A stretch of DNA of 64,000 nucleotides from a bacterium (GTDB taxonomy: Bacteria > Patescibacteriota > Saccharimonadia > CAILAD01 > GCA-016700035). The stretch lies in assembly GCA_016700035.1 (NCBI GenBank), contig CP064998.1, positions 662,699-726,698 of the forward strand, given 5' to 3'. This document shows positions 1,205 through 21,966 of the stretch, piece after piece. The notes below the pieces were generated by a model that was given only the letters and a program-made list of their open reading frames with translations, made no database searches and was not told the origin of the DNA. How positions within the stretch are numbered: position 1 is the first letter of the stretch; each line of letters starts with the position of its first letter. Both the position numbers and the translations under genes were made by a program.

Positions 1205-3655
1205 TTAACCCACTGCCTCGGCTTCAGCTAGCTCTACCGCCAAAACCGTAGAAGCAGTGCGCGGACTAGCCGTCACACCAAACAGCTTATCAGACTGCAC
1301 CATAGTTTCATGATTGTGTGTGATGACAAGTATTTGCGATTTTTTAGCCAACTGCTTTAGGGTCTGGCAAAAAAGCTGGGCATTTCGATCATCTAGTGCC
1401 GCATCAACCTCATCCAATACAATGAACGGACTAGGATTAACTGACAAAATTGCTGATAATAGCGCAATTGCTGAGAGAGCTTTTTCTCCACCCGAAAGTG
1501 CCGAGAGGGTAGCTACACGCTTACCGGGTGGCTGAACAGTAATTTCAATGCCATAATCATCATCTAGTTGCAGTAGCGTTAATTCTGCAGTTCCACCAGA
1601 AAATAGTTGTGCAAAATGCTTCGCAAACGATCGATTAATCCGAGCAAAATTCTTCGCAAAAGTCGACTGAATACGGCGTGTTAATTCATCTAAAACTTTC
1701 TCCAAATCTGTAATTGCTCGCTCAATATCTTGAGCCTGATCTTCGAGATAGGCTATTCGTTCCTGAAGCTGGCCATGCGCCACAACCACCGCCTCGTCTA
1801 TTTCGCCAATTAAAGTGAGCTCTGCCTCCAGACGCGTAATAGTATCTCGATTTACTTGCCTGCCAATAGTCTTAACTCGATCACCTATCTCTACTCTCCA
1901 AGTCTTGGCTTGTTGCAATAATTGCTTGAGCTCTTGCTTAAGATCCTCGCACCGGGCATCTATTCGGGATCGGTCTTCTTGCTTCATTTTACCTTGCTGA
2001 ACTACTTCTTCTAGCTGATGGGCTATCTCAACTTGCGCCTGAATAGTATCCTGACGTGATAACTTAGCCAATTTACCACGTAACTTTTCTTGCTCAACTT
2101 CATATCGATCACGCTCTGCGCATAACTTTGTAAGCTTTTCTTCCTGGACTTTAATGCGCTGTAGCAATTCTTCCTCCAATTTACTTGGTAACTCCAGCCG
2201 ACTAGACTCCAACTCTTTTTCAATGGCATGAATATCTAATTCTAACGACCGAATTCGAATTATAATCGTAGTCTGCTTTTCAACAACCTCTTCCTTTTTG
2301 GCCATCTCTCGGGCAGCCTGCTGTTGCAATTTTGCAATTTTATCGGGCGCATCAGCTAGATCTGAATCATGCGCCAATTTAACAGTGCGAATTAGTTTAT
2401 GCAATAGGATTCGTAGCTGACTACTTGATATAGCTTTATCCTCGGTTAGTTGTCGCGCGATCAACCGAGCCAAACCTAGAGCCTGCCCAATGTAGGCAGC
2501 ACGTTGATTATTGCGCAAAGCTTGGCGTAATTTTGCTAATTGCTTGGTTAAATCACGAATTTTATTATCAAATTGTGCAATTTTTTCAGTCAGTACATCC
2601 GATTTCTGAGTTTGGTCTTGTAAATCTTTTTGTAAAGCCTTTAGATTAGACTGTAATTTAGTCTTATTTTTAACCTGCTGGGACTGTGAGTTTTTACTAT
2701 TTAATTCTGCTTTTTTAAGCTCCAGCTCAACTTGAATCTGAGTAATCTGACCACTCAGCTGACTGCGCTTACTATCTAGATCAGCTAAGGCCTGGATTAA
2801 GTCGGTCTGATTCTGAGCACTCTGCTGACTATTATCGGCGAGTTTTTGAGCTTGAGCTCGTAAACCTTTCTCTGCCAAATCAAGTTTTACAATCTCTTTT
2901 TCCAGCTCAGACTTATCCTTATTCAGTTGTTTTTGCACATCTTCAACTCGCATTATCTCTTGTTGTAAAAAATACTGTTGAGCAAGCTTTAGCCCACTGG
3001 CAACTTCCCTACGACGACCAAGTCGATCTACATCTTGGCTAACCCTATCTCGTTCAGGCACTAACTCCAGTGCTTCATTGCGCAATTTCTGGGCTTGCTC
3101 CTGAGCCTGCCTTAATCGCACCAGCACGTCGGTCCGCTCCAGCTCAAAACCACGGATTCCGCTAGCTTCTTCGAACAATAGTTTTCGTTCAGCTGGACTA
3201 GCAATAATCAAATTATCCACCATACCCTGGCCAATCACTGTGTAGCTCGATGTGCCAAAGCCAGCTTGAGCCAAAATTTTTGCCAGATCTCGAGCCAGGC
3301 ATTTACGACCATTTAAGCGATACTCACTCTCGCCAGAACGATACAACTTACGCGAGATTTTAAGCTCTTCATAATCCAGCCCTTCATCCACCCGACCAGA
3401 TAACACTAAGCTGACCTCTGCCAACGAAACTTTGGCGCGGCCTTTTTCAGTGCCAGAAAAAATTAAATCTTCTGTCTTTGTAGTACGCAAGCTTCGCCCT
3501 GCCCGCTCGCCAAGCACCCAGCGAATGGCTTCGGCAATATTACTTTTGCCGGAACCATTGGGCCCCACAATTGCTGAAATACCCGGCTCCAAATCGAGCT
3601 TTACTCGATTACCAAACGATTTAAAGCCAGCAATCTCCAAACGCCTCAGATACAC
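1205..3655 (-). CDS. smc: chromosome segregation protein SMC (short, 816 aa)
   Basis: N-terminal Walker A GPNGSGKSN; long coiled coil; C-terminal LSGGEKALSAIALL signature plus FIVLDEVDAALD Walker B. Confidence 0.85.
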   Translation of the reverse strand: MYLRRLEIAGFKSFGNRVKLDLEPGISAIVGPNGSGKSNIAEAIRWVLGERAGRSLRTTKTEDLIFSGTEKGRAKVSLAEVSLVLSGRVDEGLDYEELKISRKLYRSGESEYRLNGRKCLARDLAKILAQAGFGTSSYTVIGQGMVDNLIIASPAERKLLFEEASGIRGFELERTDVLVRLRQAQEQAQKLRNEALELVPERDRVSQDVDRLGRRREVASGLKLAQQYFLQQEIMRVEDVQKQLNKDKSELEKEIVKLDLAEKGLRAQAQKLADNSQQSAQNQTDLIQALADLDSKRSQLSGQITQIQVELELKKAELNSKNSQSQQVKNKTKLQSNLKALQKDLQDQTQKSDVLTEKIAQFDNKIRDLTKQLAKLRQALRNNQRAAYIGQALGLARLIARQLTEDKAISSSQLRILLHKLIRTVKLAHDSDLADAPDKIAKLQQQAAREMAKKEEVVEKQTTIIIRIRSLELDIHAIEKELESSRLELPSKLEEELLQRIKVQEEKLTKLCAERDRYEVEQEKLRGKLAKLSRQDTIQAQVEIAHQLEEVVQQGKMKQEDRSRIDARCEDLKQELKQLLQQAKTWRVEIGDRVKTIGRQVNRDTITRLEAELTLIGEIDEAVVVAHGQLQERIAYLEDQAQDIERAITDLEKVLDELTRRIQSTFAKNFARINRSFAKHFAQLFSGGTAELTLLQLDDDYGIEITVQPPGKRVATLSALSGGEKALSAIALLSAILSVNPSPFIVLDEVDAALDDRNAQLFCQTLKQLAKKSQILVITHNHETMVQSDKLFGVTASPRTASTVLAVELAEAEAVG

Positions 3656-3753
3656 AAAATCACCCTCATCATCTACTCCTATTGTACTTGGATAGTTACT
3701 CTGGAGCTAGCAAAACTAGCCACTCAGCATAAGACTTTTGCTATACTAAGAGA

Positions 3754-5019
3754 ATGGACAGAGAAGATCCCACCCAACACGGCGATGAAGCCTCAACTCA
3801 GCAGTCAGCCCAAGTAGCCGATGCATTACGAGCCATCCGCTCGACCGCGGAAGAGGCTCCCACAACAGAGACTGATGAGACGACTAAACCCACTCAAACA
3901 GCATGGAGTCAATCACCTTGGGGTTTTCTTGGCGAGCCAACATCTGACACTCAACCAACAAGTAGTCTACCAGAAGTCCCCGCTCCAACTCCTGGTACAT
4001 CAAATGAGAAACTATCAGAGGCCGAGCGGGAAAAGCTAGAAAAAGAAGCGCGTATGCAGGCCTATGTAGAACATAAGGAGGCAATTACTACTTCTGGCTT
4101 GCAGGTCAGACTCGATACTCAAGCAATTGCCAGGCTAGTCGATACAGTTCCAGTCGAAGAAATGGTTGAGCAAAGTTACTTACGTAAAGATGAAGTCGAG
4201 GATCTCATTGCAGATCGGCGGGCAGACATTAGTCGCACTATTGAAGCTATCGCCAGGCTTCCAGAAATACTGGAGTTTAAACCAGGCATAACACTAATTG
4301 TCGGTGAAAATGGACTAGGTAAATCCACCTTAGCTAAATCCCTACGCTATGCCGCCCTCACTCATGATCGAGCTATGCAAGATGGTGATTCGATTGCAGA
4401 AGCTAGAAATTGGGTACTTAGCCCCCGTGCCCATGGTGACGCTCAATTTGAACTCAATGACTCTGGGTTGGCACCTGAAATTTCTGAGTATATCCACGTA
4501 GACTATTATGGCCACATGCCCTATATCACCCCTCACTATTACGATGCTGCCGAAATTATTGGCCGACAAAAGACCCTTAACCGTGAAGCTGGACGCACAG
4601 ATTACCGTTACGATGAACATGGACAAAGTATGCAGTATGCCGGAACGCATAGCCGTACCGGCAGATCCCACCGCCAAACAGTTGACGATCAGCTATTTGG
4701 ATACTTAAAGAGTGAAAAAGAAAGTGAAATTAAAAGAAAAAGTTATCGTTCTGCACGAGAAGATGGCAAGAAGTATCCTACAGATCTTGATACCACAGGC
4801 CCCCAAGTATATTTTATTGATGAACCTGAAACTGGCATGAGCCCCAGACGCCACAAGCAACTAGCTAATGAGATACTAGACGTCACGCACGAGGGCGCAA
4901 CCATCATACTTCCCACAAACTCCACTGTGCTATACGACTCCGACTTACCACGCATTGATTTAGAACATCCAGAGCGAGGTATTTTTCGACCAAGTGAATA
5001 TCCAGAAGATCTAAATTAG
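3754..5019 (+). CDS. P-loop ATPase of ABC/SMC-like fold with about 170-aa disordered acidic/Thr/Pro-rich N-terminus; function unknown
   Basis: Walker A LIVGENGLGKSTL and D-loop-like YFIDEPETGMSP followed by His; no LSGGQ signature seen; divergent from smc with about 100-bp spacer. Confidence 0.5.
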   Translation: MDREDPTQHGDEASTQQSAQVADALRAIRSTAEEAPTTETDETTKPTQTAWSQSPWGFLGEPTSDTQPTSSLPEVPAPTPGTSNEKLSEAEREKLEKEARMQAYVEHKEAITTSGLQVRLDTQAIARLVDTVPVEEMVEQSYLRKDEVEDLIADRRADISRTIEAIARLPEILEFKPGITLIVGENGLGKSTLAKSLRYAALTHDRAMQDGDSIAEARNWVLSPRAHGDAQFELNDSGLAPEISEYIHVDYYGHMPYITPHYYDAAEIIGRQKTLNREAGRTDYRYDEHGQSMQYAGTHSRTGRSHRQTVDDQLFGYLKSEKESEIKRKSYRSAREDGKKYPTDLDTTGPQVYFIDEPETGMSPRRHKQLANEILDVTHEGATIILPTNSTVLYDSDLPRIDLEHPERGIFRPSEYPEDLN

Positions 5020-5849: not shown

Positions 5850-6545
5850 CTACCTATACCCCGTTAACGCCTCGGTGGCAGCGGCCTGCTGAGCATTCTG
5901 TTTGGAGTTCCCCTGCCCCTTACCGCACAAGCGCGAACCAACATACACGCCAATCGTAAAAATCTTCTCATGATCTGGACCTTCTTCAGCCAGCAGTTGA
6001 TAATGTGGCGTAACGCCTTCTTTCTCTTGTGCCAACTCCTGGAACCGACTCTTAGCATCAATATAAGTGCCTTCTTTCAGGATTGTGTCAAGCTGAGAAA
6101 TAATATGCTTGGCAATAAACTCACCAGCCACATCGTAACCATGATCCAAATACAGCGCACCAATAATCGCCTCCATCATATTCGCTAGAAGTGCCTGGCG
6201 CGTCCGACCACCACTCTTAGCCTCACCACGACTCATCATCAAATACTGACCCAGTTCCAGACGTTCAGCCACTTCTGCAAGACTCTCAGTTTTAACTAAA
6301 GCACTGCGCCAAGCCGTCATCTCGCCTTCGGGGTTATCAAAATTACGGAACAAATAGTCGGTCACCACCAGCTCTAAAACAGCATCACCCAAAAATTCCA
6401 TACGTTCGTTATGATTTATCTGATGCTTCTTATGCTCATTTAAATAACTACGATGAGTAAAGGCCTCTCGGTACAACTCATCATTAACAAAGTTAATTTC
6501 CAGAATTTTTTCAATCGCTTCTTTGTCGCGTAAAACAATACTCAT
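5850..6545 (-). CDS. rnc: ribonuclease III
   Basis: ERMEFLGDAVLELVVTDYLF RNase III signature and C-terminal dsRBD-like region. Confidence 0.9.
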   Translation of the reverse strand: MSIVLRDKEAIEKILEINFVNDELYREAFTHRSYLNEHKKHQINHNERMEFLGDAVLELVVTDYLFRNFDNPEGEMTAWRSALVKTESLAEVAERLELGQYLMMSRGEAKSGGRTRQALLANMMEAIIGALYLDHGYDVAGEFIAKHIISQLDTILKEGTYIDAKSRFQELAQEKEGVTPHYQLLAEEGPDHEKIFTIGVYVGSRLCGKGQGNSKQNAQQAAATEALTGYR

Positions 6546-7219
6546 ACTAGTTCTCGTTCTTTTATTATATCAACCGAACGGGCCATTAAGGTTTTTAGAT
6601 CTTTATATTCTAGAATTTGCTGGGCTTTCGTAGCTGGGAACCAACGGGCGCCAACAATTCCTTCACTTTCTTCAACCACAATCGGCTCGTCGGGATCCAA
6701 AGCTTCAATAAGATAAATAAAGGTTGTCATAAAAATTAGCCGCCCCTCAAAACGATAGAAGAAATGGACCTTATCAAGCTTTTCAACAATTTGGGTATTC
6801 TTCAGGCCGGTCTCTTCGCCAATCTCACGCAGGGCAGTTTGTTCTAGTGTTTCACCAGCTTCAACATGACCTTTTGGCACACTCCAGCGCCCCTTTAAGT
6901 CTTCAATCAGCAAAAATTCTACACCTTCTGCGGTAGCTCGAAACACCACACCGCCAGCCGAATATTCCCGAACGGCCCGAGCTGGTTTACGAGTATTTTT
7001 TTGATTACGACTAAAACTACCATGCGAATACGGCTTTTTAGCGCGTGTCTTTTGCGTAGTTGATTTATTCGTTATCGCCGTCGGTTGGTTCGGAGCCGTC
7101 TGGCTTATCGGGTGTTGAGCGTTCTGTTTTTTTGCTCGACGACGACCGTTGTGCAGACGTTTCTTTGCCTTCGCGGGCTTCGCGTTCTCGTTGGATTTTG
7201 TGATCTTCGGTTGGGTCAT
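6542..7219 (-). CDS. NUDIX hydrolase with basic N-terminal tail; start uncertain
   Basis: Nudix box GHVEAGETLEQTALREIGEETGL. No in-frame start exists downstream of the nusB stop, so it must overlap nusB by 155 nt or more. Confidence 0.65.
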   Translation of the reverse strand: MTQPKITKSNENAKPAKAKKRLHNGRRRAKKQNAQHPISQTAPNQPTAITNKSTTQKTRAKKPYSHGSFSRNQKNTRKPARAVREYSAGGVVFRATAEGVEFLLIEDLKGRWSVPKGHVEAGETLEQTALREIGEETGLKNTQIVEKLDKVHFFYRFEGRLIFMTTFIYLIEALDPDEPIVVEESEGIVGARWFPATKAQQILEYKDLKTLMARSVDIIKERELV

Positions 7220-7652
7220 AAAATTCACTCTGTCGATAAATAGTACCAAGCACGCCATTGATGAATCGGCTGGAGTTTTCTCCGCCGAAACTCTTGGCCA
7301 GCTCCACCGCCTCATTAATTACAACTTTTGGTGGAACTTCGCGCTTAATCATCAGCTCGTAAATTGCCAGGCGCAGAATGGTCAGGTCCATTTTTGCAAT
7401 CTGGTCGATTGGCCATTCTGGGGCGGCTGGTGCAATCATTGCATCCGTATCATCACGGTGCTTCATTGCACCCAAGGTAATGTCTCGTGCAAACTCATCA
7501 TCACCTAGCGAATCTTTATACACTGCAATATTGCGGTCTAGAATAGTATTCACATCAGACGTAAGTCCCTCAATACCAGAACGCGTACGAAACTCATACT
7601 CATACAGAGTTTGGAGTGCTACAACACGGGCAAGGTGACGATTAGAAGACAT
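7065..7652 (-). CDS. nusB: transcription antitermination factor NusB with about 50-aa acidic/basic C-terminal tail
   Basis: LARVVALQTLYEYEF and INGVLGTIYR NusB motifs. Confidence 0.8.
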   Translation of the reverse strand: MSSNRHLARVVALQTLYEYEFRTRSGIEGLTSDVNTILDRNIAVYKDSLGDDEFARDITLGAMKHRDDTDAMIAPAAPEWPIDQIAKMDLTILRLAIYELMIKREVPPKVVINEAVELAKSFGGENSSRFINGVLGTIYRQSEFYDPTEDHKIQREREAREGKETSAQRSSSSKKTERSTPDKPDGSEPTDGDNE

Positions 7653-7694: not shown

Positions 7695-7865
7695 TTAGCG
7701 TCTTCCGGCCAGTCTGGCGACCCCTTTTTGGGCGGCTCGATAAAATCGGCGCGGAATTACTAGCCCACTAGTCGGCTCTGTCACTAGCTGTCCGGCTTTC
7801 AGGGCATCATGACTACGACGTTGACCTTTGGTGGCCTTAGAAGTACGCTTCTTTGGTACTGCCAT
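7695..7865 (-). CDS. rpmF: 50S ribosomal protein L32
   Basis: MAVPKKRTSKATKGQRRSH is the L32 signature. The ORF track's upstream extension is probably not translated. Confidence 0.85.
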   Translation of the reverse strand: MAVPKKRTSKATKGQRRSHDALKAGQLVTEPTSGLVIPRRFYRAAQKGVARLAGRR

Positions 7866-8080
7866 ATTTCGATCTTTCTCCTGTAATTTTAAAGATATTT
7901 TCACGCGTATGTGGCAAACGAAGACAGTGGCACATGTAGCTTTAGAATCCTATAAAGTACTAACAGTACTTCGAATGCCTTTTAACGCATGTTCGAAGGT
8001 AATTGTAACAGATTAGAGACAATTTGGCAATAAAAGCTCCAGATAAGCTCCTGCGCCTCAATAAATACCCGACAATCCTA

Positions 8081-8109
8081 TTGACAATCTAAAACCATAA
8101 CGCTAAGAT
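8081..8109 (+). promoter_or_regulatory. sigma70-type promoter TTGACA-17-TAAGAT for the secreted small protein gene
   Basis: seen directly: ttgacaatctaaaaccataacgctaagat, about 45 nt upstream of the GTG start at 8180. Confidence 0.55.
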
Positions 8110-8179
8110 TAGGCTCCCAGATAGCATCCAGGCTAACTGGGTCGCCAAAATAATGGCGAATTTACCTTGAGGGGTCAAA

Positions 8180-8503
8180 GTGAACACCAAGACAACAAGC
8201 AAGAGGCGACTCATCGTAACTCTGGCTATCCTGGCCAGCTTGCTCGGTGGATCGTTCATCTCAACTCAGACGGCTTCAGCAGGTGGCAGGCCCATCTCGC
8301 GAACCAACGGTTGGGCACCGAATTACTACGCACCTTTCGCAAATATCCACCACTGGTCGGCACCCAACACCAAGCTGTACATGCTGTGCTGGTTCGATCA
8401 CGGTGGTCGACGCTGGTTCTGGATCCAGATCTTCGACAACGGTGGCTACTACTACATGCCATCGACATACGTCAAATATCAGTCGTGGACTCCGCACTGC
8501 TAA
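8180..8503 (+). CDS. small secreted aromatic-rich protein (signal peptide, about 75-aa mature part with 2 Cys); GTG start; high GC
   Basis: N-terminal hydrophobic signal with ASA cleavage-like site; strong C/G third-position bias; own promoter and terminator. Confidence 0.5.
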   Translation: MNTKTTSKRRLIVTLAILASLLGGSFISTQTASAGGRPISRTNGWAPNYYAPFANIHHWSAPNTKLYMLCWFDHGGRRWFWIQIFDNGGYYYMPSTYVKYQSWTPHC

Positions 8504-8569
8504 TATCCTCACCCTCGGGCAACACAAGTTGTCCGAGGTATTTTTGTATATTGCCAGAATTCAATAAAA

Positions 8570-8595
8570 ACACCCCCACACACTGTGGGGGCTTG
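8570..8595. terminator. bidirectional GC-stem hairpin between convergent genes
   Basis: cccccacacactgtggggg flanked by A/T runs. Confidence 0.5.
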
Positions 8596-8613
8596 GTGTT
8601 CACCGGTCAACTA

Positions 8614-9348
8614 TTAGCTGACCAACAAACGGACTCGTGAGATAAACTCACGATGCTTCTTGACTTCCTCGAAATACGGCGAGGGAACCACAGCGCGATT
8701 GATGTCGCCAAGCATGCCGGCGATCCGCTCATCGCTAAAGTTCAGATATCGCCCGAGCTCGAGTTTGCAATCTATCCTACGGGGAAAGATGCTCTCGGGG
8801 AGGAAGCGCGTGAGGATCAGCGCTCGGACCGGAAGGAACTCCCAATCGCGCTGACTAAGCGACATCCCATCTGGCAAGAACTCCAACTCGTACGCACCCA
8901 ACTGCTCCTCAATGATATCGAGGCTCTTCTTCGCGATACCGACGATGTAGCCGATCTCCCGCCGCGACATCCAGGCCAGCTGATTTAGTGTCGTGAAGCC
9001 AAATCGACCAAGCTTAGCGTAGATTAGTCCGTTGACCGCCGACGAGAGTGGAATTGGATTGTCGTTGATGCGAGGTTTCGATGTGAAGGATTGCGCGGTA
9101 TCTACCGCCACGAAGTCCTTCTCTTGCGACATGAAGCACTCCACTTCCACGCCCGGAACCGAGCGCAAATTCTCTAGCAGAGCTTCCAAATGTGGATCGA
9201 ACTGGTGAACCAGCTCGGAACCTCGGACGTCATCGCCCGAGATACGAATACTGACGAGGAAAGGCATATGCTTCCTTAGCAAGGTTCGGGTACGAGCCTT
9301 TTGCTCATACATGGCTTTGAGATTAGCGCAACTTTGCACTTTTCCCAA
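8614..9348 (-). CDS. hypothetical protein with RpoA-CTD-like helix-hairpin-helix segment
   Basis: TTLNQLAWMSRREIGYIVGIAKKSLDIIEEQL resembles the HhH of RNA polymerase alpha C-terminal domain; moderately GC-rich. Confidence 0.4.
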   Translation of the reverse strand: MGKVQSCANLKAMYEQKARTRTLLRKHMPFLVSIRISGDDVRGSELVHQFDPHLEALLENLRSVPGVEVECFMSQEKDFVAVDTAQSFTSKPRINDNPIPLSSAVNGLIYAKLGRFGFTTLNQLAWMSRREIGYIVGIAKKSLDIIEEQLGAYELEFLPDGMSLSQRDWEFLPVRALILTRFLPESIFPRRIDCKLELGRYLNFSDERIAGMLGDINRAVVPSPYFEEVKKHREFISRVRLLVS

Positions 9349-9509
9349 TCAGAATAAATAAAATTTACTTACTTTGATTGAGATTTGTAAAGAAGTTGCC
9401 CCGTCCAAAAACCAAAGCTTTTGGACGGGAGAGGAGGACAGTGCGCCAGAGTCTTCGCAGAGATTTGCCCTACGGCGAATCTCTGCAGACCCTTTAGTGC
9501 TGTCCGACG

Positions 9510-9880
9510 TGGAGCCGGGGGGAATCGAACCCCCGTCCAGAAGGTAAATTCTTACCCTGCTACGACTATTCCCAAGATTTTGCGTGTAACGCTCACGCTT
9601 GGCTAACTGGGTTGCCAATCGGCAATACTGCCGAACTCGTCGCGTCTATTGCGTGATGTCAATCACTCTTTCGCGATCGTCAGTCGTCTGTTCCGACCGT
9701 CATTCTCCGCTTCTGTTGCCAAGCTGCGGTGAATTGGCTCCGTCCTTCTGCGCACATGGTACGAGTGACAATAATCGGGCGTGTTAGGCGGCGATTATTT
9801 TGGGTGCTCCGTTTTACGAGTCTGAGCAACTCGAGTCGCAATAGTAAGTCTTATTCCCTCTGTCGAAACCGATCGGCCCC
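9510..9880 (-). ncRNA. ssrA: tmRNA (SsrA), one-piece, about 371 nt; CCA not encoded
   Basis: Minus strand starts GGGGCCGAUCGGUUUCGACAGAGGG (tRNA-like 5' half). It ends GGACGGGGGUUCGAUUCCCCCCGGCUCCA (T-arm plus acceptor). Downstream hairpins act as terminator. Confidence 0.8.
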
Positions 9881-9890
9881 AGAAGAGTGG

Positions 9891-10190
9891 CTACACGCAG
9901 TAGCCGTTGTCGACCAAGTCCTGCACACGACAGAACTGGGCCGGAATGGAGTCGGTCGGCAGACCAAGCTCCGCATCGAAGCTACGGATGACGTAGCGCT
10001 CGACCGGATTGGGGTACATGCCCTCAGGCAGACTCCAATCACTGGCATCCAGCGCCACGAACCCCTCAACGGGGATCCTGACGTGGAGCATGAGGAGATC
10101 CGTGTGGACCCCGAGAATGCGGACGAAGCCACGATCCTCTTCCTCGCCACCCACCTCTTCGTGGGTGAGGACGTAGATCTTGTCGGACAT
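9891..10190 (-). CDS. hypothetical acidic protein (99 aa), high GC
   Basis: third codon positions almost all C/G in this frame. Confidence 0.5.
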   Translation of the reverse strand: MSDKIYVLTHEEVGGEEEDRGFVRILGVHTDLLMLHVRIPVEGFVALDASDWSLPEGMYPNPVERYVIRSFDAELGLPTDSIPAQFCRVQDLVDNGYCV

Positions 10191-10343
10191 GATCTGCCTT
10201 TCGGCTCAGGGAATCGACTTACTCGATTCACATCTATTTGAAGGTGCTGGGATTGGTCCCAGCCACAATATTCGAAACTTCATTCAAATACTATGGTTGG
10301 GACCCTCCTAAAGCCCCCAAAGGAACTCTAGGAGGGGTGGGGA

Positions 10344-10700
10344 TCAGTCCGAAGACTTGTCCTCACCACCGAGATCCTCGCAGCGCGCGGGAATCTTGAT
10401 GCTCGAGCCGGGCTCGATCTGGCTCTCCTTGGAGAGTCCGTTGCGAGCCAGGATCAGGCGACCCCACTCGGAACGGTAGTCTCCTTCGCCCATGAAGGCG
10501 GTCAAGGAGCTGGCGTACCAGTCGGGGTAGGTGGCATCGATGACGTCACCCAGCATGGGGTCGTAGTCACCGGTGGTGAACTCGTCGACCTGCGCCGAGT
10601 AGTCACACGGGAAGTCGGCAGTCATGTTGGCTGCGTTGCCGCAGCCCGCGAGAGCCACGAAGATGGTCAGGGACAGGGCGATCACGAGGATCTTGCGCAT
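10344..10700 (-). CDS. lipoprotein with C-terminal LysM-like segment, high GC
   Basis: signal peptide plus lipobox LAGC; C-terminal GRLILARNGLSKESQIEPGSSIKIP resembles the LysM C-terminal half. Confidence 0.55.
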   Translation of the reverse strand: MRKILVIALSLTIFVALAGCGNAANMTADFPCDYSAQVDEFTTGDYDPMLGDVIDATYPDWYASSLTAFMGEGDYRSEWGRLILARNGLSKESQIEPGSSIKIPARCEDLGGEDKSSD

Positions 10701-11819
10701 TTTGTATCACCTCACGACGATCCAGGCTGCGTTGGCCCGCGGGGAGACTCCCCACCAAAACTCACGAATATCATGAACTTTGGTGAGCCCCAGAACCCGA
10801 AGGTTCTGGGGAGTGCAGCACATAGGCTGCGAGATTGCCGGGGCGCTATTACCCCACAGTGCGGTCGCAAGCGGTTAAGGCCGAAGCCTAACAAAACCAC
10901 AAGCGGCACACCCGGCACAGCGACTTCCATCTTTTTTGAGAGAGGAAGGTAATGAAAGTCGCGCGAGCTTGACGTCGTCCTGTCATGGAATTGAGCTCTT
11001 TCACCGAGCTCAACCAAAGGGGAGGACAACGTCACATTATAACCGTTGGGGTCCCCTTTTCTGCCTTTGTTAACTACCCACCTCTCTCGAGGTCACCCTT
11101 TTGGGTGTCGCCGTTACTCGACGCAGGCGCAGTTTTACCAATTTTATCTCCCAGAAGCCCAGATTAGGGTTCAGCCAATCTCACTCGAGGACGCTGGTGC
11201 GTAGCTCTCGCTTCAAAAGGCCCCCGCATTACTATGCGGGTCAACGGTTAGCGAATTTGCTAGGTGGAGACGCCTCCACATAGCAGGACACCTACTCACT
11301 CCCCAAGAAGAGGCAGGTTTTCAATGCCCTTGTAATCTGGAAGCTTTATACTCCCGGCGCGAGGCCATATTTTGGCACCGCGCTGGAAGTATAAACTCCC
11401 AGGTTTTAAAGAACTAAAAACTGATGTGTGTTGGTTTAAAAAGGTCAAAACAATACGCACATACGCTCATGTGGCATAACAGCCAGCGTGGGATTGTCGG
11501 GGTTTTTAAAGCAGTTTCGTCCTTACAGGACTCATCAGCTGGAGTACACACTCCAGGACTGCCCCCACTAAAAGCAGCTGTACTGCCTTTTGATGGGGTG
11601 TGAGCTGCGCCAAGCGCTTACAAAGCCACATCTCACTGGCTCGATTTTTATGACTTTCTTGTCAGAGTTTAGTGACGGCCGGTTCTCTCCAGCCCCAAGG
11701 AGCTTCCCCCTGGAATTACGGGCCTTTTACGAGTGCCATACTCGGGTTATGCTTTTCGGATTCTTTTTCCCTCCAATAAGCTTCTGTTGCCAGGCGCTAC
11801 CACACGCCCCGCAGAACCG

Positions 11820-12020
11820 CTACTCGCGATCCCACAGCTCCCAATCGCCCGGGTGGGTCTGGTCGAGCTCATCGCAGAGCTCGATGTAGGTATGACCTGT
11901 GACGATCAACACCTCCCCGGTCGAGATCACCTCGACCAGCCAGTCACTCCGATCAAGCTCTGCGATCCGGCCAGCAGCCGGAGGACGCGGAGCACAGCGA
12001 CGGGTGTAACCTCCTGCCAT
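11820..12020 (-). CDS. small hypothetical protein (66 aa), high GC
   Basis: perfect Shine-Dalgarno AAGGAGGTG 5 nt before ATG; strong C/G third-position bias; second gene of a 2-gene operon. Confidence 0.45.
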   Translation of the reverse strand: MAGGYTRRCAPRPPAAGRIAELDRSDWLVEVISTGEVLIVTGHTYIELCDELDQTHPGDWELWDRE

Positions 12021-12068
12021 TTCACCTCCTTTCAAGGTGTCGTTGGAATGGAATGGAGTTTGCTCGGG

Positions 12069-12404
12069 CTACAAGTAGCCCGGCACTTCGAACTCCGAGT
12101 TGGTTGACTCCTCGCTTGCCACACACAGGTGGCCATCGAGGTGGCCGGCTTGAAAACCGACCTTGTAGCCGAGAATCAGCATGGCCAAGCCACGGTGGTC
12201 TTCGGGCATGTCGAACTCCTCGAGGTCACTGTAGACCATCGCGGCGACCGACACCAGATGGTGCTTGATGATCGCCTCGAGACTCTCACCATCGAGGTCT
12301 TCAGCCACGAGGATCATGCCGAGCATCTGCTCGACCGCATCATCGCTGAAGAGGTTTTCGAAATCGAGATGGTTGGTGGTGGTGCTCATAGGCCTGAACC
12401 GCAT
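12069..12404 (-). CDS. acidic hypothetical protein (about 106-111 aa), high GC
   Basis: ORF with GC3 bias; candidate promoter TTGACA-17-TAAACT about 70 nt upstream on the minus strand. Confidence 0.5.
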   Translation of the reverse strand: MRFRPMSTTTNHLDFENLFSDDAVEQMLGMILVAEDLDGESLEAIIKHHLVSVAAMVYSDLEEFDMPEDHRGLAMLILGYKVGFQAGHLDGHLCVASEESTNSEFEVPGYL

Positions 12405-12605
12405 GAGAGGAATAAGAGCGATCCAAAACTATGAGCACCAGGTATAAAATAAAGGTTCTGTTAAAAAATCTATGAAGAATTTATAACTAAAGCTGAGTTT
12501 AGCAGAAAATATATTTTTTGTCAATACTATTTGTCATTTTTTATATATTTTATACATTTTTTAGCTTTTTACCCTAAAATTTACTTTATTTTTTTGTAAA
12601 TATAT

Positions 12606-12630
12606 ATAGAAAAAGACCCACATTGGGTCT
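12606..12630 (-). terminator. rho-independent terminator (minus strand) ending the candidate ncRNA
   Basis: minus strand reads agacccaatgtgggtct followed by TTTTTC. Confidence 0.6.
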
Positions 12631-13030
12631 TACTTAAATTTGCTTATGGTAGATGTTTTGGGGCGACCCCACGTACTGCGGGGTCGCCCCTTCGCTCGTT
12701 TTGACTTTTAACTGTTTTGCTCCTCGCCACACTCCGAATCATTACGTCATCGGACTCTGGTTTTTAGAGCAAGCACCCCCGTTTTGCCGAGCAGGCTTTT
12801 GGGATGCAATCATTCGCAACTATAGACGAGACGCAGGTCGGGCACAGGTTGCAAATGATTTTCGGCGTTTAGCCACAGAGGGTGATTTCAGGTAAACTCA
12901 CCCATAGCTTCCCCTTTCGGGTCGTGTTGCGCCCGCTAATAGCAGACAGATGACAGAGTAACATCCTCCACACCTAAGTTCCAGCACCACAGAGAGATAA
13001 TCTCCGCTAGCCTTCACTAGCAACGCTTGC
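12631..13030 (-). ncRNA. candidate novel ncRNA of about 420 nt with no ORF; family unknown
   Basis: Bounded by a perfect consensus promoter (13031-13059) and a canonical terminator (12606-12630). Internal perfect 11-bp GC hairpin at 12660-12690. No minus-strand ORF with an RBS. Confidence 0.5.
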
Positions 13031-13059
13031 ATTATACTTAGATTCTAATTATTTGTCAA
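13031..13059 (-). promoter_or_regulatory. consensus sigma70 promoter TTGACA-17-TATAAT driving the ncRNA candidate
   Basis: minus strand reads TTGACAaataattagaatctaagTATAAT, immediately downstream of the trmB-like stop. Confidence 0.65.
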
Positions 13060-13072
13060 TGTTTATCAACAT

Positions 13073-13831
13073 TTATTTCTGATGCTTATTCCAGGCCAGC
13101 TCAAAAAGCTGTCGCAATACCGACACCAACTCACGACCCTCAATCACAATCCCCACCGGCTGATCTCCGGAATAGGTGACAATACTAGCTCGATCTTCAT
13201 AGAGGTTAAGATCAGCTTTTACATCTTCTGATAAACGAATAGTTTCTCTTAGAGATTCTGGATCACTCTTTAGCTCTCTCGACCCAGAGTAAAAACCTTT
13301 TCCAGTAATCTGCTTCCTTTTTCGCTTCAGTGCGTTTGATTCCGTATGATCAGGAGCGATTTTATCTAGTTCATCTAGATTTGTCATGCCATACACGACT
13401 TCATTAGGCTTAGCTTTGCGCTTAAGATATGAGCTAAGCGCCAGAATTGCCTCTGGCCCCTTAAAGAACCGTACTACCGGGGCATCATCAGCAATTTCCG
13501 ATCGATTTACTTCATTAAGCTCTTTCATCACACCCTTGAGCTGACTTTTACGAGAGTCAATTTCTTTCTCCATCACTCCAAGGTAACGATCAATCGCCTC
13601 GGGTGGTTCAGCTACGAATACGGCCTTTTTACCTTCAGTAGCCTCGGAAACTAGTCCAATATCGGCAAGTTCAGCCAAAATAACATAAGTAGTCGCACGA
13701 TTTACTTCAGCTTGTTCGGCAATACGCTGAACAGCTGCCGGCCCCAAGAAGAGAGCTGCAACATACACTTTAGCCTGCTTTTCAGTTAGGCCAACGGCTT
13801 CAAGTTTTTTGGCAAGATTTGCGATTTGCAT
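13073..13831 (-). CDS. TrmB-family transcriptional regulator
   Basis: N-terminal winged HTH LTEKQAKVYVAALFLGPAAVQRIAEQAEVNRATTYVILAELADIGLV typical of TrmB-like regulators. Confidence 0.65.
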   Translation of the reverse strand: MQIANLAKKLEAVGLTEKQAKVYVAALFLGPAAVQRIAEQAEVNRATTYVILAELADIGLVSEATEGKKAVFVAEPPEAIDRYLGVMEKEIDSRKSQLKGVMKELNEVNRSEIADDAPVVRFFKGPEAILALSSYLKRKAKPNEVVYGMTNLDELDKIAPDHTESNALKRKRKQITGKGFYSGSRELKSDPESLRETIRLSEDVKADLNLYEDRASIVTYSGDQPVGIVIEGRELVSVLRQLFELAWNKHQK

Positions 13832-13837
13832 AAACTT

Positions 13838-13866
13838 ATTATACTTACGTTGTCAATTTTTGTCAA
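13838..13866 (-). promoter_or_regulatory. sigma70 promoter TTGACA-17-TATAAT for the TrmB-like gene
   Basis: minus strand reads TTGACAaaaattgacaacgtaagTATAAT. The core closely resembles the ncRNA promoter. Confidence 0.55.
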
Positions 13867-13898
13867 CATTTTGAAGAAATGCTTAATTAAAAATACCC

Positions 13899-13931
13899 GC
13901 GTGCTCTCTCCTGGGGGAGGAAAGCACGCGG
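13899..13931 (-). terminator. rho-independent terminator of the high-GC membrane protein gene
   Basis: minus strand reads cccgcgtgctttcctcccccaggagagagcacgcggg followed by TATTTTT. Confidence 0.55.
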
Positions 13932-13973
13932 GCGGGTTACCGACCCTGTCAAGGGTCAGCAACAGAAGGTGGC

Positions 13974-14498
13974 TCAGTCGCCGGCGACAGACTGTTGCGC
14001 CTCTTCGGTGAGCTGCCGGATCTCCGTGGAGACTCGGCTGGACTTGATGGCGCCAGGCTCGTCGGCCTTGGCTGGAACGGCGAGGAATTCACCATCAACC
14101 AGGGATGTGCCAGTGGTACCCGTCAGGAGGCGTGACAGACGCACCCATTCAGTCTGGTACCGGGCGAGCTCGAGAGATTTGGCCTCATCCGAGAGACTGT
14201 CCTCTCGTACTCGTGCTTCAATGAGTGTGTTCGGGAACACCGCCAGTGCGGCGCTCTCAAGACTGTCGCCCTCCCGCGCCTGCAGGATGATGGCGTGGTC
14301 GTAGACCTTGCCGATGTCCTCGGCAGTGTTAACCGTCGGGGAATCGGCCTGAATCAGCATAAAGATAGCAAGGATCACAAAGACTCCTGCAACCACACCG
14401 CTGATCCACCAGACTCGGTGGCCCTTGCTACCTTCATCGAGTGGGCGAAGCGTAGTGCTCTGGCGCTCGGTCTTGCGAGACTCTTCGGTTATGGGCAT
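13974..14498 (-). CDS. membrane-anchored hypothetical protein, high GC
   Basis: single TM helix WWISGVVAGVFVILAIFMLI; strong SD AGGAGG; promoter TTGACA-17-TATAAA at 14550-14578. Confidence 0.55.
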   Translation of the reverse strand: MPITEESRKTERQSTTLRPLDEGSKGHRVWWISGVVAGVFVILAIFMLIQADSPTVNTAEDIGKVYDHAIILQAREGDSLESAALAVFPNTLIEARVREDSLSDEAKSLELARYQTEWVRLSRLLTGTTGTSLVDGEFLAVPAKADEPGAIKSSRVSTEIRQLTEEAQQSVAGD

Positions 14499-14598
14499 AG
14501 CTGACCTCCTAATGGGTCGTCAGATACTGCATGGTGCAATAACCCGCTATTTATAGCAAAAAGCTAGTTTTTTGTCAAGGAGATTTAACATCCACCCC

Positions 14599-17028
14599 TT
14601 AATGAGCGGTTACAAAGTTGACTAACCTATCCGGCACCACAATAACTTTGATGACCTGCAAGCCATGCGTCCAGTTATGCTCGGCATCTAGACCACGCGC
14701 CTGATCCTCTATAGCACCAGGTAACTTACCTGCCTCCATCACAAACTCACCGCGCAACTTGCCATTTACCTGCACTGCAATTGTTACTAATTCATCACGA
14801 GTTTTAGCTTCATCAAAAGTAGGCCAAGCTTCCAGATGTACACTTTCCTCTTCACCCAACTCCTGCCATAATTCTTCGGCCAAAAATGGCGCAAAGGGCG
14901 CCAAAAGGCGGACGAATGTTTGCACATGCTCACGCCAAAGCTCAACCGAAACATCGCTCGCTCGCTGAACCTTAGTGAGTAGGGTGATGTACTCCATCAT
15001 CGAGGCAATGGCAGTATTAAATCGAGTACTCTCTAGATCCTCAGTAATTTTTTTGACCAGCTTATGTAGGGACGTATCGAGTGCTGTCTCACTCGTGGCG
15101 TCAATAACATTGGGTTCATATTGAGCCGAAATTGTGCCATAAACTTTCTGCAAAAAGCGGTATGTCCCCTCAAACCGTTGCGGATCCCACGGCCCACCAT
15201 CTTCCCACGGCCCCATAAACATCAGGTACAGACGCACCGCATCAGCGCCGTATTTTTCGACATACTGCATCGGGTCTATCACATTACCTTTAGATTTGCT
15301 CATCTTATTACCATCCGGACCGAGAATCATACCCTGATTAATTAGCTTGGTAAACGGCTCCTGAAAATCTATTAAGCCAGCATCATACAAAAACTTAGCG
15401 ATAAAGCGCGCGTACAGCAAGTGCAGAATAGCATGCTCCACCCCACCCATGTAGCGATCGACTGGCAACCAGGTCTTAACTGCTTCTGGATCGAATGCAC
15501 CATCTTGATACTGTGTATTTGGATAGCGTAAGAAGTACCAGCTTGAATCAACAAAAGTATCCATCGTGTCGGTTTCGCGACGAGCATTGGTATTGCCACA
15601 CTTGGGGCAAGTGGCCTTCACGTAATCTGGATGAGTGTGTAGAGGCGAGCGACCAGACTTATCAAACTCCTGCCCCAACGGCAAGACAACCGGGAGCTGA
15701 TCTTCAGGAACTGGTACCACGCCACATTCTTCGCAGTAAATAATCGGAATCGGAGCGCCCCAATAGCGCTGACGTGAGATTAGCCAGTCACGCAAACGGT
15801 AATTAGTTGTGGCCTTTCCAAAACCCCCCTTATGAAGCCACTCCACAATCTTTTTCTTAGCTTCTGGGCTTTTGAGGCCATCAAACTGGCCCGAATTTTG
15901 CATCACACCATCACCGGCGTAAGGCTCGGATGCCTTATCTTGATTGGTAATTACCTCGATAATCTGCAAATTATACTTCTTAGCAAAAGCATGGTCACGC
16001 TCATCATGAGCCGGGACCGCCATGATAGCCCCAGTGCCATAGCCCATTAAGACATAATCTGCCACCCAAACTGGAATTTTTTCGGCATTAGCCGGATTAA
16101 CCACATAGCCACCGGTAAAGACACCAGTCTTTTCCTTGGCCTCCATACGGTCAACATCGGTGCGAGTACCGGCCCATTGTTGGTATTTTTCAACTTCGGA
16201 GCGCTGTTCTTCAGTTATTAGGTCTGCCACCAATGGATGTTCTGGCGCCACCACCATAAAAGTTGATCCAAAAATTGTATCTGGTCGAGTAGTAAATACC
16301 TCCAGCGTACCATCTGCACCATAGACCTTAAATTCTAGATGCGCACCAGCACTACGACCAATCCAGTTACGTTGCTGTTGGCAGACTCGCTCTGGCCAAT
16401 CTAATTCATCCAAATCTTCTAGAAGTCTATCGGCGTAGTCGGTAATAGTAAGATACCACTGCTTTAAATTCTTACGCTCCACTTTTGTACCGCAACGCTC
16501 ACATTCACCATGTACAACTTGCTCATTAGCAAGCACGGTCTGGCAGCTCGGACACCAATTCACCACCCCATCTCGACGAACAGCCTTGCCGGCGTGATAA
16601 AGCTTCAAGAAAAGCCACTGCGTCCACTTATAATAATCGGGCTTAGAAGTATTAATGATACGATCCAAGTCATACATTCCACCCAAAATCTTGTATTGAT
16701 CATGAAAGCTAGCGGTATTTTTATCGGTCCACTCGTCGGCAGGAATACCGTTTTTAATAGCTGCATTCTCAGCTGGCAAGCCAAAAGCATCGTAACCCAA
16801 GGGTTGCAATACATCTTTACCGCGCATCCGCTCAAACCGGCCCAACGTATCGGCCGGTGCAAAATTATACCAGTGCCCAACATGCAAATTGCCCGACGGG
16901 TATGGAAACATCACCAGATTATAAAATGGTGATTTTGGGTCCTTGGACGTTTTGTATATGCCAGACTTTTCCCACACTGCTCGCCATTTAGCCTCAGTGG
17001 CTCGTGGATCATAGCTTGCCTTACTCAT
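14599..17028 (-). CDS. leuS: leucyl-tRNA synthetase
   Basis: HVGHWYNF HIGH motif, KMSKS present, CP1 editing domain, 809 aa. Confidence 0.95.
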   Translation of the reverse strand: MSKASYDPRATEAKWRAVWEKSGIYKTSKDPKSPFYNLVMFPYPSGNLHVGHWYNFAPADTLGRFERMRGKDVLQPLGYDAFGLPAENAAIKNGIPADEWTDKNTASFHDQYKILGGMYDLDRIINTSKPDYYKWTQWLFLKLYHAGKAVRRDGVVNWCPSCQTVLANEQVVHGECERCGTKVERKNLKQWYLTITDYADRLLEDLDELDWPERVCQQQRNWIGRSAGAHLEFKVYGADGTLEVFTTRPDTIFGSTFMVVAPEHPLVADLITEEQRSEVEKYQQWAGTRTDVDRMEAKEKTGVFTGGYVVNPANAEKIPVWVADYVLMGYGTGAIMAVPAHDERDHAFAKKYNLQIIEVITNQDKASEPYAGDGVMQNSGQFDGLKSPEAKKKIVEWLHKGGFGKATTNYRLRDWLISRQRYWGAPIPIIYCEECGVVPVPEDQLPVVLPLGQEFDKSGRSPLHTHPDYVKATCPKCGNTNARRETDTMDTFVDSSWYFLRYPNTQYQDGAFDPEAVKTWLPVDRYMGGVEHAILHLLYARFIAKFLYDAGLIDFQEPFTKLINQGMILGPDGNKMSKSKGNVIDPMQYVEKYGADAVRLYLMFMGPWEDGGPWDPQRFEGTYRFLQKVYGTISAQYEPNVIDATSETALDTSLHKLVKKITEDLESTRFNTAIASMMEYITLLTKVQRASDVSVELWREHVQTFVRLLAPFAPFLAEELWQELGEEESVHLEAWPTFDEAKTRDELVTIAVQVNGKLRGEFVMEAGKLPGAIEDQARGLDAEHNWTHGLQVIKVIVVPDRLVNFVTAH

Positions 17029-17067
17029 GGGCGCAATTATACCTGATTATCAGGAGTAAATCGAGGC

Positions 17068-21613: not shown

Positions 21614-21618
21614 CACTA

Positions 21619-21855
21619 TCACCCTTTCTTGATTCTCGCCTTGAGTCTCCGGTTTTCTTCTGCAAGCTCTGCCACTTCTTCGACTTTGCTCCAGTATTCC
21701 TTTGCGTGCCTCGCGTTCTCTTCCTTTTCTCGTGCTCTCCTAAGATTGTGCTCCTTAGCGTTACTCTTGAGGACGCGATCAACAACAAACCCAGTGGCAA
21801 GTATCCCTATTAGAAGCCCCCACCAGAACTCTGCAATGGACAAAACGTCTATCAT
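21619..21855 (-). CDS. small membrane-anchored coiled-coil protein
   Basis: N-terminal TM plus Lys/Glu/Arg-rich helix. Confidence 0.35.
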   Translation of the reverse strand: MIDVLSIAEFWWGLLIGILATGFVVDRVLKSNAKEHNLRRAREKEENARHAKEYWSKVEEVAELAEENRRLKARIKKG

Positions 21856-21966
21856 AATTCAATTCTAAGTCATTATTGCCAAAATGAGTAGATACCTGTC
21901 ACCAATAGGAAGCCCACCCAGCTCGAACTGCTGCCCTCAACTGTATGGAGGAGCGACTCAGCATGC

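Follow-up and report, generated by a model that had tools for sequence, protein, structure and literature searches.

A codon-biased, mosaic gene locus with a type III hammerhead ribozyme beside the tmRNA gene of a Saccharibacterium

The 64-kb stretch of contig CP064998.1 analysed here (assembly GCA_016700035.1; hereafter the window) contains a single transfer-messenger RNA (tmRNA) gene, ssrA, which is surrounded by small genes of strongly deviating composition. A sequence-only reading of this DNA had proposed that the segment 8150-12420 is a horizontally acquired island built around ssrA, with a high-GC actinobacterial host of an epibiotic Saccharibacterium as the donor. The deviating composition and the assignment of the organism were both borne out by our analysis; the simple island was not. 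We prefer to regard the segment as the variable part of an old, vertically retained and laterally reshuffled locus around the single tmRNA gene in a clade of Saccharibacteria. Within this locus lies a hammerhead ribozyme, missed by the sequence-only reading and embedded in a long structured RNA.

The segment 8150-12420 has a G+C content of 54.4 %, compared to 46.3 % for the remainder of the 64-kb window (46.9 % for the window as a whole), which places it at z=7.1 with regard to the other windows of 4271 nt (0.466 ± 0.011, maximum 0.491). The G+C fraction of third codon positions (GC3) is 0.417 ± 0.050 in the 39 long background genes of the window and does not exceed 0.585 there, whereas the five open reading frames (ORFs) named in the sequence-only reading lie 5.5-8.7 standard deviations (SD) above these genes, with 0.69 at 8180-8503 (plus strand), 0.79 at 9891-10190, 0.85 at 10344-10700, 0.70 at 11820-12020 and 0.78 at 12069-12389 (all minus strand); across the locus, GC3 deviates from the host at z=5.2-8.7. 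The claimed bias towards C and G in third positions is thus real, and so is the deviant codon usage, while the description of these positions as near-exclusively C/G was overstated (GC3 0.66-0.85). C-ending codons in particular are favoured in the locus with respect to the background, as seen for ATC (0.79 vs 0.19), TTC (0.80 vs 0.16), TAC (0.88 vs 0.31), and GTC (0.48 vs 0.10). This preference is missing from the ribosomal-protein and other core genes of the window, which makes ordinary translational selection unlikely. Extent and content of the segment were incompletely described at first, as a 217-aa gene (8617-9267), a 1.1-kb stretch without credible ORF inside the GC-rich segment (10701-11819), and a 174-aa gene (13974-14498, minus strand; G+C 0.60, GC3 0.69) had been omitted, the last of which carries the anomaly past 12420. 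Between the segment and the 174-aa gene lie an AT-rich region (12405-12640, minus strand; G+C 0.24) that is conserved with two relatives (L009 and L008, see below) and forms both the right-hand compositional border and the putative operon promoter, a non-coding stretch, and a trmB-like gene with a GC3 of 0.36. This mid-locus trmB and its orthologues retain native composition (GC3 0.36-0.42). Since neither trmB nor the promoter region is GC-rich, the GC3 excess is gene-specific and not regional.

The locus was compared with those of five related Saccharibacteria genomes retrieved via exact-protein look-ups (L009, L016, L008, L004, and L023/L024), six genomes with the window; in addition, the Logan contig L001 is 100 % identical to window positions 7749-17255 and served as source of some gene calls. 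A common gene order, pieced together across the five relatives as not all contigs span it (L016 stops at the 215-aa gene), runs from LeuRS over a 172-189-aa gene, TrmB, small ORFs, the hammerhead ribozyme and further small ORFs to the tmRNA, and continues with a 215-217-aa gene, L32, NusB, NUDIX, RNase III, and SMC. Exceptions are L004, which has no tmRNA at the locus, and L023, in which opposite-strand paralogues replace the 217-aa gene. In every relative the locus genes show a GC3 of 0.57-0.91 and the flanking housekeeping genes one of 0.39-0.60. In the five relatives, orthologues hence occupy corresponding positions and share the GC3 excess, the very pattern that the sequence-only reading had said would speak against an insertion, and a recent arrival of the segment is not upheld. 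A search of 5.8 billion proteins gave only eight homologues of the 217-aa protein (54-93 % identity); four of the eight homologue contigs are long enough for context, and all four display Saccharibacteria-type synteny. The sole species representative in GTDB with this family, detected by a contig scan at a single locus, is an uncultured Candidatus Saccharibacteria metagenome-assembled genome.

By all-against-all blastp, five minus-strand gene positions were defined, namely A, B, lipoprotein, C, and alpha-CTD-like, the last named after the C-terminal domain of the RNA polymerase alpha subunit. Their genes are under purifying selection, with ratios of nonsynonymous to synonymous divergence (dN/dS) of 0.08-0.50 against orthologues; at 0.17-0.50, the small ORFs all prove to be real genes. 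Position A (12069-12389) encodes a very acidic 106-aa protein (pI 4.2) with orthologues in L009 (75 % identical, dN/dS 0.27) and, at 32-36 % identity, in L023 and L016. At position B (11820-12020; gene call in L001), the window shares an acidic 66-aa protein with L023 (71 % identical, dN/dS 0.31); L009, L004, and L008 have an unrelated Cys-rich (CxxC...CxxC), zinc-ribbon-like protein of 66-70 aa there, and L016 a third type. The acidic 99-aa protein of position C (9891-10190) found its sole relative in a 94-aa gene of L023 (43 % identity, dN/dS 0.24). Directly upstream of the tmRNA in L009 (8970-9320), L016 (9051-9398), and L008 (9014-9391), this position is held by an unrelated 'NLTPHP' protein of 115-125 aa, which matches phrog_30542 (E=1e-22), a PADLOC model ('unknown small protein, sometimes fused to CARF'), and proteins of Firmicutes phages (Paenibacillus, Bacillus) and archaeal viruses, not of actinophages. 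For the 99-, 66-, and 106-aa proteins of the window, relatives outside the clade were not detected in profile, phage-record, PHROGs, or PADLOC searches.

The lipoprotein gene (10344-10700, minus strand) encodes 118 aa with a signal peptide, MRKILVIALSLTIFVALAGC, that ends in the lipobox LAGC; Cys20 is invariant in the family, Cys32 and Cys107 are conserved, and models of lipoprotein signals match weakly. Its orthologues fall into two subtypes, being 73 % identical in L023 and 27-31 % identical in L016 and L008, and the family is small, with 7 matches in 1.84 billion representatives. Of the earlier description as a LysM lipoprotein the lipobox stands, whereas LysM is a weak lead: the last 26 residues (83-108) match a protein with four LysM domains at E=4.7e-4, no match to the Pfam LysM family (PF01476) was obtained at E<=0.1, and the AF2 model (pLDDT 71.5) had no significant match in PDB (best E=0.89), although several of the weak matches contain LysM.

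Directly 3' of the tmRNA, in five genomes, lies the gene for the 217-aa protein (8617-9267, minus strand; GC3 0.68; gene call from L001), the largest GC-rich gene of the segment, whose orthologues show a GC3 of 0.59-0.71 and dN/dS of 0.08-0.36. A promoter-like site for it was found by motif scan at 9362-9391 (minus strand). Pfam yielded no match for the window's protein, residues 86-130 matched the NCBIfam RpoA model weakly (E=0.019), and the top Foldseek matches of its model were the alpha-CTD and the N-terminal domain of RAD51 (TM score 0.7-0.8 on target, E=0.06-0.8), while a paralogue in L023 is listed with PF03118. Although these E-values are weak, they suggest a central alpha-CTD-like (HhH)2 domain. 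L023 itself contains three tandem alpha-CTD-like paralogues on the opposite strand (2806-4985; 218, 219, and 206 aa; GC3 0.75-0.89; one with PF03118), and L004 has an additional, opposite-strand 247-aa paralogue. Beyond trmB, the GC-rich 174-aa gene (13974-14498) encodes an acidic, membrane-anchored protein with one transmembrane helix; its orthologues occupy the same position in five genomes (GC3 0.68-0.88, dN/dS 0.18-0.49).

At the other end of the segment, the plus-strand gene 8180-8503 encodes a secreted, basic 107-aa protein (pI 9.9) with a signal peptide; a promoter-like site (TTGACA-17-TAAGAT, consensus scan) precedes it at 8081-8109 (plus strand), and terminator-like hairpins separate it from the convergent 217-aa gene (8513-8592, with 8513-8538 on the plus strand and 8572-8592 on both). 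The L009 orthologue is 75 % identical (dN/dS 0.18), and a JGI contig of 701 kb carries a near-identical protein. Together with its flanks, including the promoter-like site, the gene forms a clean indel against L008 (8035-8566), and L004 has a different gene there. In a concatenated tblastn search of seven proteins against 72,556 plasmids, only two Streptomyces plasmids matched, through this secreted protein, which is 44 % identical over 61 aa to a 110-aa Streptomyces protein (pairwise E=1e-17); the named members of the 90 % cluster of the latter represent several species of Streptomyces, and one bears the label 'SH3 domain-containing'. The suspected actinobacterial kinship was therefore correct for this protein, and its gene is the only part of the locus with the appearance of an inter-phylum transfer involving Actinobacteria.

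The ORF-free core of the segment contains, judged by sequence conservation, a bona fide type III hammerhead ribozyme with stem III open (11509-11564, minus strand; Rfam RF00008, 40.9 bits, E=1.9e-6). Copies lie at 7053-7107 in L009, 7376-7430 in L008, 9682-9736 in L004, ~7427-7481 in L016, and ~1050-1105 in L023, with scores of 53.4 bits in L009 and 50.4 bits in L008, both above the Rfam gathering score of 48.5, and 46.1 bits in L004. All six genomes keep the core CUGAUGA...GAAA and the GUC cleavage triplet unchanged, 97 % of the pair cells in the helices of the six copies are standard pairs, and double compensatory changes occur in 7 of the 17 pairs, with each of helices I, II, and III represented. 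This level of covariation was reached by none of 500 shuffles, and slid registers were only 31-55 % paired. The predicted cleavage site on the minus strand follows C11557 (11557/11556). In the literature searched, we found no paper linking hammerheads with Saccharibacteria or bacteria of the candidate phyla radiation (CPR). Pattern scans for hammerheads in IMG/VR and JGI metagenomes brought up unrelated ones only, without any similarity in their flanks. Four other metagenomic contigs, L018-L021 (40-44 % G+C), carry unrelated type III hammerheads whose stem III sequence is the same, and those of L019 (7-58) and L021 (2608-2659) lie ~40 nt upstream of an ORF start.

Downstream of the ribozyme, a conserved structured non-coding RNA without a good ORF extends over 10701-11508 (minus strand), as delineated by alignments and blastn. 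It comprises block D1 (~11290-11508), which includes a ~90-nt hairpin (11334-11405) whose apex bears lineage-specific insertions, block D2 (~10980-11180), and block D3 (~10701-10970), the leader of the lipoprotein gene with tetraloop hairpins. Upstream lies a further conserved structured block, U (11565-11795, minus strand), which is partly deleted in L016 and L023. The stretch from U over the hammerhead to D1 (516 nt) folds at z=-5.06 in comparison to dinucleotide shuffles, and Rfam searches of the 1.2-kb ORF-free stretch retrieved no family besides the hammerhead at E<=10. The motifs GACAGGAAAGUC and GAGCCAGUGAG had suggested RNase P RNA or a permuted form of it, which was rejected as Rfam gave nothing for it at that threshold; likewise rejected was a tmRNA paralogue in block U, since the best local match of 16 nt was no better than the best of 200 shuffles. 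A 13-mer, UGGCAACAGAAGC, is conserved in both RNAs and occurs in the same sense in the tmRNA (9709-9724) and at the start of block U (11780-11795); in block U it is seen in five genomes out of six, two of them with one mismatch, and the scan did not find a copy in L008. One possibility raised by the shared sequence is a common protein-binding site in both RNAs.

L004 (645-kb JGI contig Ga0496010_0000005) differs from the other genomes at this point, as its locus (8112-10000) lacks lipoprotein gene, position C gene, and tmRNA, and the hammerhead lies ~270 nt upstream of the 215-aa gene. Homology to the window fades past the ribozyme: blastn stops at its 3' end, and only ~60 nt of D1 can still be aligned.

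The tmRNA gene itself (9507-9880, minus strand) was located inside the segment as claimed, by both ARAGORN and Rfam (108 bits). It is a standard one-piece gene, 88-92 % identical to those of four relatives; wherever a tmRNA is present at the locus, it begins ~10 nt past the stop codon of the gene before it. Its tag is likely (A)GAPKIIAA by the conserved reading frame: the tag peptide called by ARAGORN, ATSSAVLPIGNPVSQA (tmRNA positions 238-288), looks wrong, whereas the frame at the canonical position 71-97 is conserved, reads GAPKIIAA-stop, and agrees with the GAPTIIAA that ARAGORN gives for the L023 orthologue. The gene ssrA is a well-documented integration hotspot, and ssrA-specific islands such as the ssrA-GIs of Dehalococcoides lie 3' of ssrA, are delimited by a repeat of the ssrA 3' terminus, and include an integrase module (PMC3146451). 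Here, 20-nt and 30-nt probes of the ssrA 3' end matched, at <=3 mismatches, only ssrA itself in the 64 kb; neither Pfam nor NCBIfam revealed an integrase or recombinase among the ORFs of 8150-14500, and the precomputed Pfam assignments for the five relatives' loci contained none either, so that the sequence-only reading was right in seeing neither integrase nor att repeat. Its picture of an island built around the tmRNA does not hold, as ssrA is flanked on either side by GC-rich genes, which also occur further out, most of the segment is 5' of ssrA, and the locus layout is syntenic in relatives, with indels only in sub-pieces, e.g. 8035-8566 against L008. A stretch of ~30 nt in the 5' region of the secreted-protein gene (8131-8161, plus strand) resembles an internal tmRNA segment (9601-9635), to which it is complementary on the mRNA strand, with a local score of 32 (shuffle maximum 26); its core 8131-8148 is identical in 17 of 18 positions. 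The likeness concerns an internal part of the tmRNA and not its 3' end, and is restricted to the window, being absent from the orthologous region of L009.

Between the genes of the locus, the intergenic blocks are conserved by blastn while the ORFs they enclose are divergent or non-homologous. Divergent or unrelated alleles at each position, set between conserved hairpin-rich blocks, identify the locus as a mosaic. Furthermore, the combination of alleles is mixed, the window agreeing with L009 at some positions and with L023 at others. The hairpin-rich block between the lipoprotein and position C genes (10191-10343, minus strand) is conserved in all genomes whichever ORFs flank it, and L008 (8517-9021) carries, exactly between two of the hairpins of this block, an additional ORF of 88 aa that has a ribosome-binding site of its own. 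TrmB of the window (13073-13831, minus strand) is 88 % identical in amino acids to that of L008 and 67 % to that of L009, whereas LeuRS is 82 % identical to L008 and 86 % to L009; this discordance of the TrmB phylogeny with LeuRS points to recombination across the locus. In repeat searches the intergenic blocks showed no similarity to each other, and no attC family was found, which renders the arrangement not integron-like. The non-coding DNA that separates the AT-rich promoter region from trmB (12641-13072) contains a perfect 11-bp hairpin at ~12653-12683, and ~12700-13017 has no counterpart in any compared relative.

The genomes that share this layout are far apart. Synonymous divergence (dS) between them ranges from 1.4 to undefined for LeuRS, is mostly undefined for RNase III, and amounts to 0.7-1.2 for NusB, so that most housekeeping genes have reached or passed saturation at their synonymous sites. 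Two locus genes are likewise saturated in the comparison of the window with L004: the proportion of differing synonymous sites (pS) is 0.73 for the 217-aa gene and 0.66 for the 174-aa gene, where a codon-bias-limited control predicts 0.78 and 0.70 at saturation. Despite this saturation, both genes have a GC3 of 0.59-0.77 in the window and in L004. For the lipoprotein and 66-aa genes, pS between the window and L023 stays under saturation (z about -2.6), while NusB and RNase III of the same pair, with raw pS of 0.73 and 0.83 and no simulation control, are at or near it; some accessory alleles may accordingly be younger than the host genomes that carry them. The lower dS of locus genes had been considered as proof of recent exchange, a use that was dropped because after the codon-bias-limited saturation correction it is only suggestive at this same z.

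The minus-strand genes probably form one operon, as judged from the arrangement of putative signals. Promoter-like sites cluster at 12496-12537, where a consensus scan detected two overlapping ones (minus strand), and the only strong terminator is the intrinsic-terminator-like hairpin just after the tmRNA (9399-9430, minus strand), which has a 14-bp stem and a T run. A single transcript would thus run from the promoter region through the 106-aa and 66-aa genes, ~1.1 kb of structured RNA with the hammerhead, the lipoprotein gene, and the 99-aa gene to the tmRNA and the terminator; beyond it follow the gene for the alpha-CTD-like protein and, convergent to that, the gene for the small secreted protein. 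The tmRNA begins ~10 nt after the position C gene no matter which unrelated gene that is, which speaks against a conserved internal promoter and in favour of co-transcription of the position genes with the tmRNA, followed by RNase P-type 5' processing. The ribozyme would cut this transcript after C11557 and thereby separate an A-B mRNA from a precursor containing lipoprotein, position C gene, and tmRNA. A more far-reaching reading, in which the hammerhead-bearing RNA belongs to an undescribed tmRNA operon of Saccharibacteria, its cleavage processes the tmRNA-ending transcript, and the conserved blocks double as recombination junctions for swapping the GC-rich genes, appears rather unlikely to us when taken as a whole.

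The signal of foreign origin is real and its simple reading fails, as the codon bias is unameliorated despite saturation in the most divergent comparisons. Within the old, reshuffled locus that we prefer, it seems to us slightly better than an even bet that the genes represent a pool of their own, exchanged laterally and marked by a particular codon dialect, which is kept by repeated allele replacement through conserved junctions. Such a pool would be mobile-element or phage-like, its alleles would be swapped by homologous recombination via the conserved intergenic blocks, and, with the position genes drawn from it, composition would mark pool membership and not recent arrival. The mosaicism, the somewhat sub-saturated divergence of some alleles, and the known link of hammerheads to small ORFs and phage-like DNA argue for it; prokaryotic hammerheads often flank small, non-conserved ORFs and have been linked to phages and prophages (PMC6155905). 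Several points weigh on the other side. A donor pool was not found: none of the seven proteins of the window matched PHROGs or 50,697 phage records, none matched the anti-phage defence models of PADLOC, and IMG/VR returned nothing for the two queries tried, the 217-aa family and the lipoprotein. The 217-aa and lipoprotein families are tiny and occur, where contexts are readable, only in those of Saccharibacteria type, which leaves composition and mosaicism as the grounds from which a pool is inferred, and the comparison covers six genomes. Polarised synonymous changes are ambiguous, being balanced in the 217-aa gene (12 GC-to-AT vs 10 AT-to-GC) and GC-to-AT-biased in the 174-aa gene; these counts are low, GC-rich outgroups bias the parsimony, and the two genes point in different directions. 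As to the RNA, the hammerhead of the window scores below the Rfam gathering score, L004 shows that the ribozyme is not strictly tied to the tmRNA, having the former and lacking the latter at the locus, and co-transcription and cleavage are predictions from sequence.

Could the genes instead be native, with a GC3 raised locally, through GC-biased gene conversion at a hotspot of recombination or through selection on these particular mRNAs? In favour of this, the GC3 excess is stable in orthologues across saturated divergence, the locus does recombine, as its mosaic alleles and the discordant TrmB tree indicate, the two families submitted to large searches (217-aa and lipoprotein) are clade-restricted with no outside donor found, and the balanced substitutions of the 217-aa gene fit as well. 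However, trmB lies in the recombining region and has a discordant tree, and yet keeps its low GC3 next to a promoter region of 24 % G+C, core genes show no C-ending preference, and the secreted protein has homologues in Streptomyces; on balance we hold a native origin to be unlikely. A classical ssrA-targeting island or prophage, inserted in a common ancestor and stripped of integrase and att sites so that only GC-rich cargo was left, strikes us as improbable. The segment does adjoin the ssrA hotspot (PMC3146451) and is atypical in composition, the genes 3' of the tmRNA differ in number and orientation (three paralogues in L023, the opposite-strand 247-aa gene in L004), three relatives have the phage-type phrog_30542 gene at position C, and the 8131-8161 stretch resembles the tmRNA beyond the shuffle maximum. 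Against these observations stand the unrepeated ssrA 3' end, the lack of an integrase or recombinase at the locus in all six genomes, the placement of most GC-rich genes 5' of the tmRNA or beyond trmB, where an element integrating into ssrA would not sit, and a GC3 undecayed at saturated synonymous divergence in the most divergent comparisons, while the 8131-8161 likeness is internal to the tmRNA and absent from L009. Direct acquisition of the whole cargo from a high-GC actinobacterial host of the epibiont, finally, appears quite improbable. It is encouraged by the secreted protein, whose only plasmid matches are from Streptomyces, by a codon usage like that of high-GC bacteria (CTC/CTG, GTC, ATC, TTC, TAC, AAG, GAG), and by locus genes reaching a GC3 of 0.88-0.91 in L016 and L023. 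Nevertheless, the secreted protein reaches just 44 % identity over 61 residues, the remaining six GC-rich proteins had no actinobacterial match (the 217-aa protein and the lipoprotein being the ones searched in large collections) and no plasmid match either, the tiny 217-aa (8 homologues) and lipoprotein (7 matches) families offer no such donor, the phage-type family of position C matches Firmicutes phages and archaeal viruses, not actinophages, and no host is known for this lineage. Acquisition of the secreted protein alone is more likely than that of the whole set.

Some observations concern the wider surroundings of the locus. A GC3-rich (0.64) ORF of 149 aa at 21164-21613, with resolvase/transposase-type helix-turn-helix (HTH) domains (HTH_23, HTH_7, HTH_38), is followed by a 79-aa ORF, both within 21164-21868 on the plus strand and thus opposite to nearly all neighbours; they are probably a fragment of an insertion sequence, and this GC3-rich fragment would fit a GC-rich mobile pool. 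The longest NUDIX ORF (6542-7315, minus strand; 257 aa) overlaps nusB (7065-7652, minus strand) by ~250 nt, and as the NUDIX genes of relatives encode 135-179 aa, the real start is probably internal. In L016, LeuRS (1751-4612) was called at 953 aa with NUDIX among its Pfam matches, compared to 809 aa in the window, which suggests an insertion or fusion absent from the window's LeuRS.

Composition-based island calling would label this segment a recent horizontal transfer at a tmRNA hotspot, and a GC3-rich gene set kept through saturating divergence in a reduced, lower-GC genome is a counter-example to amelioration-based reasoning. Furthermore, the locus puts a conserved, covarying hammerhead and ~1 kb of structured RNA in a syntenic context by the tmRNA of an episymbiotic CPR lineage, and such a single-copy, syntenic hammerhead with natural allele swaps offers a tractable place to test the role of bacterial hammerheads. 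The secreted SH3-like protein, found also in Streptomyces, provides a concrete case of possible gene exchange between Saccharibacteria and Actinobacteria. Should the operon-and-junction reading given above nonetheless prove true, the locus would be a ribozyme-marked site of gene exchange with its own persistent codon dialect.

Several known systems invite comparison. Like the ssrA islands of Dehalococcoides (PMC3146451), the locus lies beside the single-copy tmRNA gene of a streamlined genome, deviates in composition and codon bias, and shows localised plasticity with strain-variable small genes; in contrast to them, it is devoid of repeat and integrase, has GC-rich genes on both sides of ssrA, and follows a layout common to related species. 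It is also reminiscent of integron cassette arrays in its small, promoterless-looking ORFs of the same orientation, separated by hairpins and preceded by a single upstream promoter region, from which it differs in having neither an IntI integrase (by Pfam and NCBIfam) nor an attC repeat family. With the mosaicism of phages and hypervariable loci it shares unrelated genes at the same position between conserved junctions, in combinations that differ by genome; however, phage structural, replication, and integration genes are missing, and the junctions are long, structured RNA-like blocks and not short boundaries. On the protein level, the central ~65 residues of the 217-aa protein model as (HhH)2 (TM score 0.7-0.8) with a G-x-KSL-x-x-I motif as in the RNA polymerase alpha-CTD (PF03118), whereas the protein stands alone without the alpha N-terminal domain, has no Pfam match, and gave weak sequence and fold E-values. 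The hammerhead has a canonical type III core and helices and an intergenic setting among small, poorly conserved ORFs as in other prokaryotic hammerheads (PMC6155905), with a phage-type gene in the locus of relatives, but here it is a single copy within ~0.5 kb of conserved structured RNA, chromosomal, syntenic across species, and placed upstream of and co-oriented with the tmRNA of a Saccharibacterium. Thus, hammerheads among small ORFs of unknown function and variable loci beside ssrA were each known already, while new in combination are a locus with no integrase, synteny across species, allele replacement at fixed positions, a lasting GC3 bias, co-orientation with the tmRNA, and a host among the Saccharibacteria.

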